Shown: piece by piece, positions 13,565 to 14,611 of the stretch
Layout of the letters: each line of letters opens with the position of its first letter
Position numbering within the stretch: the stretch's first letter is position 1
NCBI GenBank assembly: GCA_964565945.1
Contig: CAZMGY010000019.1
Span: 90,001 to 122,000, forward strand
Reading direction: 5' to 3'
DNA from: an uncultured bacterium
GTDB lineage: Bacteria > GCA-001730085
Length of the DNA: 32,000 bases
Notes under the pieces: model-generated
Seen by the model: only the letters and a program-made list of their open reading frames with translations
Databases searched by the model: none
Told to the model about the DNA's origin: nothing
Translations under genes and position numbers: made by a program

Positions 13565-14611
13565 TTAATCGTCGTCTCGGGTCACTAAGAATTCTCCCCA
13601 AATAGGGCGGTGATCCGAAACTGCTTTTCTAGCCGTGTAGAGATCGTTCTTATAAATGTGTTTGTCGAACTCAAAAATACTTGATTTTCCAGTGTATTCG
13701 GTCAAATGATCTTGATCGAAGAAGAAGTTGTCATAAAGGCTTTTGTCGCCTATGGTGGTTTTGCCGTTGTGAATCAGTGCACACATTCCGTTGCTACAGG
13801 CTAGCAGAGCTTGAAACCCTTCATCGCGCGGGCCAAAGTTGAAATCACCTAAAATGATAATGTCTTGTTCATGACTATCTTGTTGTTGGAGTGTAGTGTA
13901 AACTTCGGCCAGCTGTTTGATTTCGGGGCGACGATGTTTCTTGGAGTTACCAAAAAGCACGTGGATTGTGGCTAGGGTAAAGTCAAACTGACCAGCTTTG
14001 AAAGTGGCGTAATAGGGTTCGCGAATAAAGTGATTCTGAGGGTCAGGGTAAATCTGACCTTTTTGTTTAATTTCGATGATGCCAGCTTTGTAGATAAAGG
14101 CATAACGTTCTTTGACGCTTTTTCCGACAGGTCGAGAAATCATATAGTCATAGTCGAGGCCTTTATCTCTCAGAATAGCCAAAGTCCGTTGAATCACGGT
14201 TTCATCGCGCACTTCTTGCACCGCAATCAGGTCATACCGTTCCAAAATGGCGGCAATTTGTTGGAGCTCTTGGTCATCACGGCTTTTGTTGGAATAGATT
14301 CTAATGTTGAATGATGCGATGGTGATGGCTTTGCCCAGTTTGGCTTTAATGATGGGGTGCTTGGGGGTTGATGAGAATGGTTTGAAGTTTTGAAGAGAAT
14401 CGACGAGTTGTCGCGTTTGGTGCGTGATGGTGGGGCCAACAAGTTTGCGGATCCATGTTAGCGCCTTGTTGCGATGCTGACGATAAGGCTGGTAAACGTG
14501 TGGAGCGAGTGTATCGACGATGAGCAAAATAACGGTCAAAAGCAGTAATTTTTTCAAACGTTGTAAGTTAGGTGTAGTAGGTTTAGATTGTTTTTTCTTC
14601 TTTTGAGCCAT
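13565..14611 (-). CDS. Membrane-anchored DNase I-family nuclease (endonuclease/exonuclease/phosphatase fold)
   Basis: N-terminal anchor 'KKLLLLTVILLIVDTLA'. The domain is colinear with mammalian DNase I as I recall it: 'IASFNIR', 'RYDLIAVQEVRDE', 'KERYAFIY', 'FIREPYYATF', 'ATIHV', 'ILGDFN', 'LYDNFF' and 'VSDHRPIW'. ATG 14611 is preferred over the TTG at 14653. Confidence 0.8.
   Translation of the reverse strand: MAQKKKKQSKPTTPNLQRLKKLLLLTVILLIVDTLAPHVYQPYRQHRNKALTWIRKLVGPTITHQTRQLVDSLQNFKPFSSTPKHPIIKAKLGKAITIASFNIRIYSNKSRDDQELQQIAAILERYDLIAVQEVRDETVIQRTLAILRDKGLDYDYMISRPVGKSVKERYAFIYKAGIIEIKQKGQIYPDPQNHFIREPYYATFKAGQFDFTLATIHVLFGNSKKHRRPEIKQLAEVYTTLQQQDSHEQDIIILGDFNFGPRDEGFQALLACSNGMCALIHNGKTTIGDKSLYDNFFFDQDHLTEYTGKSSIFEFDKHIYKNDLYTARKAVSDHRPIWGEFLVTRDDD

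Follow-up and report, generated by a model that had tools for sequence, protein, structure and literature searches.

A predicted membrane-anchored periplasmic nuclease of the bacterial DNase I branch encoded behind glycan-export genes in an uncultured bacterium

Background

In the genome of an uncultured bacterium, a gene whose product resembles mammalian DNase I lies directly behind three genes of glycan export and modification. The locus raises the questions of whether the product is a nuclease at all, in which compartment of the cell it would act, and whether it works together with its glycan neighbors. We analyzed it within a stretch of 32,000 nucleotides (positions 90,001 to 122,000 of contig CAZMGY010000019.1, GenBank assembly GCA_964565945.1), which we call the window; all positions below are those of the window. 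An earlier reading of the same stretch, made from the letters and the open reading frames alone, had described a membrane-anchored homologue of mammalian DNase I co-transcribed with the glycan genes. We refer to it as the original prediction.

The EEP fold is common to DNase I, CdtB, sphingomyelinases, and lipid and inositol phosphatases. CdtB, the nuclease subunit of the cytolethal distending toxin, combines this fold with an active-site chemistry like that of DNase I.

DNase I-family enzymes have already been described in prokaryotes. The characterized example is DNaseTA of Thioalkalivibrio sp. K90mix (UniProt D3SGB1; Alzbutas et al. 2015, PMC4486849). DNaseTA needs Ca2+ or Mg2+ to digest DNA and is most active with both, is inactivated by the H134A substitution, and has an HhH DNA-binding domain at its C-terminus (PMC4486849). 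About 300 prokaryotic proteins of the family were counted in 2015, one of which was predicted to be a transmembrane protein (PMC4486849). Another bacterial EEP-family enzyme, BT3563 of Bacteroides thetaiotaomicron, is an extracellular lipoprotein DNase that is found on the outer membrane and on vesicles and shapes biofilm structure (PMC8851478).

Results

The gene and its product

The features of the locus are collected in Table 1.

Table 1. Features of the nuclease gene and of its glycan-gene neighbors (positions in the window)
Feature	Position	Strand	Basis or remark
DNase I-family nuclease gene, complete	13565..14611	(-)	348 aa, stop codon included; ORF list and translation
Lys/Arg-rich tail of the nuclease, predicted cytoplasmic, residues 1-21	14549..14611	(-)	charge count, net +8
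Hydrophobic signal-anchor helix of the nuclease (predicted), residues 22-40, LLLLTVILLIVDTLAPHVY	14492..14548	(-)	hydropathy, AlphaFold2
Basic stalk of the nuclease, residues 41-95	14327..14491	(-)	partly helical, model confidence low
DNase I-like EEP catalytic domain, residues 96-348	13568..14326	(-)	PF03372, PDB matches, fold
Spacer between glycosyltransferase stop and nuclease ATG	14612..14672	(-)	61 nt, sequence read
GT4-family glycosyltransferase	14673..15833	(-)	PF00534, 3.5e-23; neighbor of the nuclease gene
SAM-dependent methyltransferase	15830..16501	(-)	PF13489, 4.8e-21; 4-nt overlap with each neighbor
Wzx/MOP-type polysaccharide flippase	16498..17967	(-)	PF13440, 1.9e-50; NCBIfam MOP flippase, 5.7e-37

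Translated from the ATG, the nuclease begins with MAQKKKKQSK. An alternative in-frame TTG upstream of this ATG, at 14653, would add 14 residues. Two observations favor the ATG: homologues open likewise, with a methionine and then a K/R-rich tail, and it is the start chosen in independent gene calls for three metagenome contigs from this organism.

All catalytic motifs quoted in the original prediction were found in the translation at the expected spacing: FNIR (residues 101-104), QEVRD (132-136), KERY (167-170), TIHV (215-218), GDFN (255-258), LYDN (292-295), and SDHRP (332-336). The catalytic domain ends in a DDD tail that is conserved in the family.

The N-terminal layout, described earlier as a Lys-rich segment followed by one transmembrane helix, was also confirmed. 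Residues 1-21 include eight Lys or Arg and no Asp or Glu, and the hydrophobic stretch follows at residues 22-40.

Export and topology

The best 19-residue hydropathy window of the protein is this same stretch, residues 22-40 (mean Kyte-Doolittle value 2.05), and the AlphaFold2 model has a helix at residues 14-35. The single N-terminal hydrophobic anchor agrees with the predicted membrane attachment. By the positive-inside rule, the N-terminus would be placed in the cytoplasm. There is no lipobox cysteine in the N-terminal region, and signal peptidase I is unlikely to cleave the protein, because a proline directly follows the only TLA-like small-residue site. An Asp interrupts the hydrophobic segment, however, so that the protein may yet be cleaved and set free in the periplasm or outside it.

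The stalk behind the helix is basic: residues 36-95 contain 11 Lys or Arg and one Asp or Glu, i.e., a net charge of +10. Homologues with a transmembrane anchor have tails with charges from +4 to +11 (+8 in the nuclease) and stalks that are typically 50-90 residues long, often basic, and not conserved in sequence. All the homologues inspected have an export signal, be it in the form of a signal peptide, of a lipobox, or of a K-rich anchor.

A BamA gene in the genome (E = 1.2e-67) indicates that the organism is diderm. The anchor would therefore put the catalytic domain in the periplasm and not on the cell surface, which argues against the surface or NET-degrading nuclease that had been proposed.

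Assignment to the DNase I family

The sole Pfam model here is the superfamily-level PF03372. The profile search proposed with the original prediction gave a match to this model over residues 99-302 of the nuclease (E = 1.7e-10). A phmmer search against all PDB chains was more specific: DNase1L3 was matched with E = 9e-18 over residues 96-337 and DNase I with E = 3e-16 to 7e-15, while EEPD1 was far behind and nothing else was found at E <= 1. With a family profile built from 31 diverse homologues of the nuclease, the matches extended over the full 255-residue domain and strengthened to 4.8e-33 for DNase1L3 and about 1e-30 for DNase I. EEPD1 came next (7.5e-15), and the values for ExoIII (0.2) and CdtB (0.14) were non-significant. 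No sphingomyelinase or inositol polyphosphate 5-phosphatase appeared among the PDB matches of the family profile at E <= 10.

The predicted fold points the same way. The AlphaFold2 model has a mean pLDDT of 83.6, with most of the catalytic domain above 90. DNase I and DNase1L3 structures take all of the first ten places in the Foldseek ranking, with E values between 2.8e-19 and 2.4e-15, TM scores (TMt) of 0.78-0.83, and 26-27% identity. The DNA-acting enzymes EEPD1 and TDP2 rank after them, as does the RNA deadenylase CNOT6L, and the 50 best fold matches include no sphingomyelinase or 5-phosphatase.

Residues N102, E133, E168, H217, D256, N258, D294, D333, and H334 of the nuclease align with N7, E39, E78, H134, D168, N170, D212, D251, and H252 of the bovine enzyme, respectively. 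These catalytic and metal-binding residues are invariant in the alignment of the 31 homologues. The same is true of the equivalents of the DNA-contacting residues R9, R111, and Y211 (R104, R197, and Y293 in the nuclease), and the equivalent of R41 (R135) is nearly invariant. The DNA-stacking Tyr76 of the bovine enzyme is replaced by Val166.

Judged by sequence and model, the nuclease is a genuine member of the DNase I family, with a similarity well past chance. The earlier assignment to true DNase I, as opposed to CdtB, sphingomyelinases, or inositol phosphatases, is thus backed by single-sequence comparison, profile, and predicted fold alike.

Comparison with characterized nucleases

Like DNaseTA, the nuclease is an exported bacterial protein whose EEP domain is of the DNase I type, and the two have the blocks SWNI, AIQEV, REPF, DFN, LYDN, and VSDH in common. 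This comparison is one of motif blocks, as the machine-read supplementary coding sequence of DNaseTA gave only fragmentary, frameshifted tblastn matches. Where DNaseTA has a cleavable signal peptide, the nuclease has a long K-rich tail, a transmembrane anchor, and a basic stalk. It also has no HhH domain, although the fusion known from DNaseTA does occur in other members of the family.

With mammalian DNase I and DNase1L3 (PDB 1dnk, 4awn, and 7kiu) the nuclease shares the fold, all catalytic and metal-binding residues, and R9, R41, R111, and Y211. Unlike mammalian DNase I, it has Pro261 and Ser291 in place of the two cysteines that form the C173-C209 disulfide; its only cysteines, 272 and 277, are not conserved in the family. 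It lacks the actin-binding and glycosylation features of the mammalian enzymes and adds the N-terminal membrane anchor and the C-terminal DDD tail.

Among bacterial proteins, the MnuA family membrane nucleases of Mycoplasma are likewise membrane-associated EEP nucleases. The MnuA family model NF045851 is the best NCBIfam match of the nuclease (E = 1.7e-15), yet the match is below the family cut-off (57.8 bits against 185) and covers only residues 98-217, so that membership in this family was ruled out. Like BT3563, the nuclease would be an envelope-tethered EEP DNase, with the difference that BT3563 is a lipoprotein, whereas the nuclease has a transmembrane helix as its anchor. Identity with CdtB was rejected as well: the family profile reached E = 0.14 against 2f1n_A (14.3 bits, 53 positions), and the single sequence gave no CdtB match at E <= 1. 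In contrast to the CdtB toxin, no genes for CdtA- or CdtC-like partners were found near the nuclease gene.

Breadth of the bacterial family

A word-indexed search returned 567 relatives of the nuclease, the best of which are 45-58% identical, mostly over the catalytic domain. An exhaustive search of 1.84 billion cluster representatives yielded 2,785 clusters (at 50% identity) with E <= 1e-3, 159 of them with E <= 1e-30. The named genomes that encode the family belong mainly to Poribacteria, Omnitrophota, and Planctomycetota (including Brocadiia), with scattered cases in Pseudomonadota, Thermodesulfobacteriota, and Handelsmanbacteria.

In the phylogenetic tree, the nuclease clusters with metagenome proteins and adjoins sequences from Omnitrophota, while human DNase1L3 joins the bacterial family on a very long end branch of 4.1 substitutions per site. 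A search of the literature brought up no relevant phylogeny that compares prokaryotic with eukaryotic DNase I.

Two types of anchoring are seen in the family. Many members are lipoproteins, with a lipobox cysteine and a short acidic linker; the other type has a K/R-rich tail, a hydrophobic helix, and a stalk of 50-90 residues. In some members, a ComEA-like HhH DNA-binding domain is fused to the C-terminus.

The label "mammalian-type" used in the original prediction could not be upheld: the family is large and bacterial, its prokaryotic members had already been described, and the C173-C209 disulfide is absent. By its sequence, the nuclease is a new member of an already known bacterial branch of DNase I.

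Glycan-gene neighborhood

The upstream genes lie in the order and on the strand described earlier, with the nuclease gene last behind those of the flippase, methyltransferase, and glycosyltransferase. The distance from the glycosyltransferase gene, given earlier as 20-60 nt, is 61 nt from the ATG or 19 nt if the TTG is the start. The genes of the trio overlap by 4 nt, and the spacer sets the nuclease gene apart from them. On the minus strand of this 61-nt spacer, no terminator-like hairpin and no promoter-like site were found, and the spacer shows no stable fold (z = +1.1). Co-transcription or read-through is therefore possible, and the nuclease may well be transcribed together with the glycan genes. 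Three independent metagenome contigs of this organism carry the four-gene block in identical form; the organism occurs in the sequencing runs SRR19984992, SRR30621553, and SRR23257892.

The association does not extend to relatives. A tblastn search of 80 loci of nuclease homologues in named genomes found no homologue of the glycosyltransferase, flippase, or desaturase within 6 kb; the methyltransferase of the window gave two weak and distant matches. None of the Pfam families among 58 genes that immediately flank nuclease homologues occurs in more than three of them, i.e., there is no conserved neighbor. The flippase-methyltransferase-glycosyltransferase operon is likewise missing beside the nuclease homologues in all six metagenome contexts studied, which include those of the two closest relatives in the tree. 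One of these contexts has a type I restriction-modification system with Abi_C and another a type I restriction-modification system with a Shedu domain (SduA_C gene). Other homologues were found next to YchF with Mla, next to purH-purD-purE, or standing alone between divergent neighbors, in one case with a lone GT2 gene on the opposite strand at a distance of about 3 kb. Conversely, none of the three loci of glycosyltransferase homologues, which are GT2-GT4-methyltransferase blocks, contains an EEP gene.

Thus the "unusual partnership" with a glycan module that had been proposed is repeated at none of the 86 homologue loci and at none of the three glycosyltransferase loci. The placement behind the glycan trio appears lineage-specific and, judged from these comparisons, is unsupported as a functional unit; at most, the genes would have a common transcript.

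Origin of the block in this genome

The nearest genomes available for comparison, related at the family and phylum levels, yielded no orthologue of the nuclease, the flippase, or the desaturase. The glycosyltransferase had no match in the family-level genome G001 and only weak matches (22-25% identity) in G002. Because the compared genomes are kin only at the family or phylum level, the absence of these genes says little about timing.

The GC and GC3 contents of the four-gene block match those of the window, and the minus-strand genes have mirrored G3/C3 values, as expected from the strong local strand bias. A recent horizontal insertion of the block was rejected, as there is no compositional sign of one; the composition fits a long residence on the minus strand.

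Discussion

Proposed function

We consider it likely, with a probability of roughly 0.7, that the protein is a non-specific, divalent-cation-dependent DNase of the bacterial DNase I branch that is held in the periplasm by a signal anchor. The K-rich tail would remain in the cytoplasm, the hydrophobic helix would sit in the inner membrane as a signal anchor that is not cleaved off, and the basic stalk of about 55 residues would hold the catalytic domain in the periplasm of the diderm host. By homology to bovine DNase I, the domain is expected to cut double-stranded DNA as that enzyme does. His217 and His334 (bovine H134 and H252) would act as general acid and base and would be oriented by Glu168 and Asp294 (bovine E78 and D212). 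Asn102, Glu133, Asp256, Asn258, and Asp333 would hold the metal and the scissile phosphate, and Arg104, Arg135, Arg197, and Tyr293 would contact the DNA backbone.

The likely role of such an enzyme would be the breakdown of DNA that reaches the envelope, either for nutrients and phosphate or in the turnover of extracellular DNA. PurC is encoded in the genome, and a UshA-type 5'-nucleotidase was not found there; therefore strict nucleotide scavenging is not indicated. Nucleotide auxotrophy was discarded as a rationale in view of PurC.

Alternative roles

A functional coupling of the nuclease to the glycan module seems unlikely to us. According to this explanation, the genes form a common transcript, and the nuclease either trims extracellular DNA for a matrix of polysaccharide and DNA or has as its substrate a phosphodiester of the glycan or of the lipid that carries it. 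The layout of the locus is compatible with it: four genes on one strand, a spacer with neither a terminator-like hairpin nor a strong promoter match, and a block preserved on all three contigs of the organism. The biofilm-shaping BT3563 offers a precedent for an EEP-family DNase with such an effect (PMC8851478). However, translational coupling through the 4-nt overlaps is limited to the trio and leaves out the nuclease, and the adjacency is absent from the 80 named-genome and six metagenome loci as well as from the three loci of glycosyltransferase homologues. In its active site and at its DNA contacts, the protein has the residues of a DNase. In particular, the repurposed glycan or lipid phosphodiesterase offered as an option in the original prediction is improbable given the conserved DNA-contact residues and the ComEA-like HhH domains of some family members.

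An equally doubtful explanation is that of a periplasmic gatekeeper, which would either process DNA for uptake through ComEC, in a position analogous to that of the membrane-bound EndA of pneumococci, or destroy foreign DNA as a crude defense. ComEC is encoded in the genome, and the nuclease may therefore have a role in DNA uptake; the membrane tether keeping the nuclease at the inner membrane and the ComEA-type HhH fusions in the family are in line with it. Yet ComEC is widespread in non-competent bacteria, and no conserved neighbor of any kind was seen among the 58 flanking genes. The defensive variant could draw on the two of six metagenome contexts with type I restriction-modification systems, one accompanied by Abi_C and the other by Shedu SduA_C, but two such contexts may be due to chance. 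Membership in an anti-phage defense system was rejected, since PADLOC gave no meaningful match (the only one was GajB, E = 0.0056).

Elements of both explanations can be combined. The transmembrane-anchored subtype could be a dedicated periplasmic DNase, tethered to the inner membrane, for DNA that enters the envelope, where it would feed ComEC-type uptake or form a barrier to foreign DNA, and it could have been recruited in this lineage into the glycan-export transcript for co-regulated handling of envelope glycan and extracellular DNA. We regard this as speculative and its chances as low.

That the nuclease is an effector delivered into a eukaryotic host cell, where it would damage DNA in the manner of CdtB, is very improbable. 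A gene for an OTU-like protease lies 1.2 kb from the nuclease gene, and the nearest sampled relatives have no nuclease gene, both of which would suit such a role. Against this, members of the family are common among Poribacteria, Omnitrophota, and Planctomycetota that are free-living, the similarity to CdtB is non-significant, the signal anchor would be expected to keep the protein in the membrane of the bacterium, and no partner subunits for delivery are encoded nearby.

Least probable of all is a non-nuclease EEP phosphoesterase (a sphingomyelinase, a lipid phosphatase, or an inositol phosphatase), since, although the fold is common to all these enzymes and the Pfam assignment is only the general PF03372, no such enzyme is among the PDB matches of the family profile at E <= 10, DNase I and DNase1L3 come ahead of EEPD1, TDP2, and CNOT6L in the fold search, and the DNA-contact arginines (R135 nearly so) and Y293 are invariant in the 31 homologues.

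Implications

A bacterial "mammalian DNase I" next to eukaryote-like genes is easily taken for a host-derived or host-directed protein. The analysis corrects this tempting reading: the predicted periplasmic DNase is one member of a large bacterial family whose proteins bear export signals and which is particularly common in PVC-related and sponge-associated phyla. Modest by-products of the work are the two clear modes of anchoring, the conserved DDD tail, and the lack of fixed gene partners in the family. If the enzyme were to prove active on incoming DNA in the periplasm, this would bear on the processing of DNA in the envelope of diderm bacteria.

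Genomic context of the nuclease and its relatives

Two further genes lie on the side of the nuclease away from the glycan genes (see the table). No Pfam match was obtained for the 579-aa protein, and the two nearest genomes yielded no orthologue of the desaturase.

Members of the nuclease family were observed within apparent defense islands in two of the six metagenome contexts, namely around homologue P0003 (loci L011/L012) and around homologue P0035 (locus L015). One of these islands includes a type I R-M specificity subunit and Abi_C, the other a type I R-M system and a Shedu SduA_C gene. 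Two more genes, one ComEA-like HhH and one DUF4131 (ComEC N-terminal), lie 3.5–4.7 kb away in L015.

The closest relatives of the glycosyltransferase (approximately 37% identity; P0123 at locus L105 and P0125 at locus L106) are found in a conserved row HNH – GT2 – GT4 – methyltransferase – Trm112p-domain gene; in L105 the last gene is fused to a second methyltransferase. The gene order at both loci differs from that in the window. Since both have the GT4 gene and the methyltransferase gene in this row, the pairing of the two is conserved.

The genome from which the window originates also contains a decayed sequence of the nuclease family. A 132-aa ORF on contig C21 (29372–29707; locus L002, 1447–1845, minus strand) corresponds to the C-terminal half of the family. 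The catalytic residues are gone, because GDFN is replaced by GHFG and SDHRP by LFHRP. This ORF is probably either a gene remnant or a domain turned to another use.

Strand bias and the flippase start

GC skew is positive (from +0.08 to +0.29) in all 1-kb bins of the window (1–32000) regardless of gene strand, and third-position usage is mirrored between the strands: G3 and C3 are approximately 0.14 and 0.30 in minus-strand genes, 0.27 and 0.15 in plus-strand genes. Together these values indicate a very strong replication-strand mutational bias.

A promoter-like site was noticed in the region 17949–17986 (TGAACA, 17 nt, TACAAT, with a TG-extended -10 element). The site ends at 17958, within the GTG-started flippase ORF, and independent gene calls start the flippase from ATG at 17949 (483 aa). 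Thus the latter is probably the true start, and the flippase transcript is possibly near-leaderless.

Segments flanking the catalytic domain

The stalk of the nuclease is strongly basic, with 11 K/R vs 1 D/E in residues 36–95. Lipoprotein-type relatives have short acidic linkers in its place. By analogy with an HhH domain or the basic tail of DNase1L3, the stalk might aid DNA binding.

Nearly all family members in homologue alignment A1, TM-anchored and lipoprotein types alike, end in DDD or DDDD immediately past the final catalytic-domain strand, whereas mammalian DNase I has no counterpart of this tail. Metal binding, autoinhibition and sorting are possible roles for it.

Features of the nuclease and its neighbors in the window
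Feature	Window positions	Strand	Residues	Remarks
Stalk	14327–14491	(-)	41–95	between membrane helix and catalytic domain of the nuclease
DDD tail	13568–13576	(-)	346–348	nuclease and homologues in alignment A1
579-aa protein	10600–12339			other side of the nuclease from the glycan genes
Membrane fatty-acid desaturase	12495–13436			convergent with the nuclease gene; PF00487
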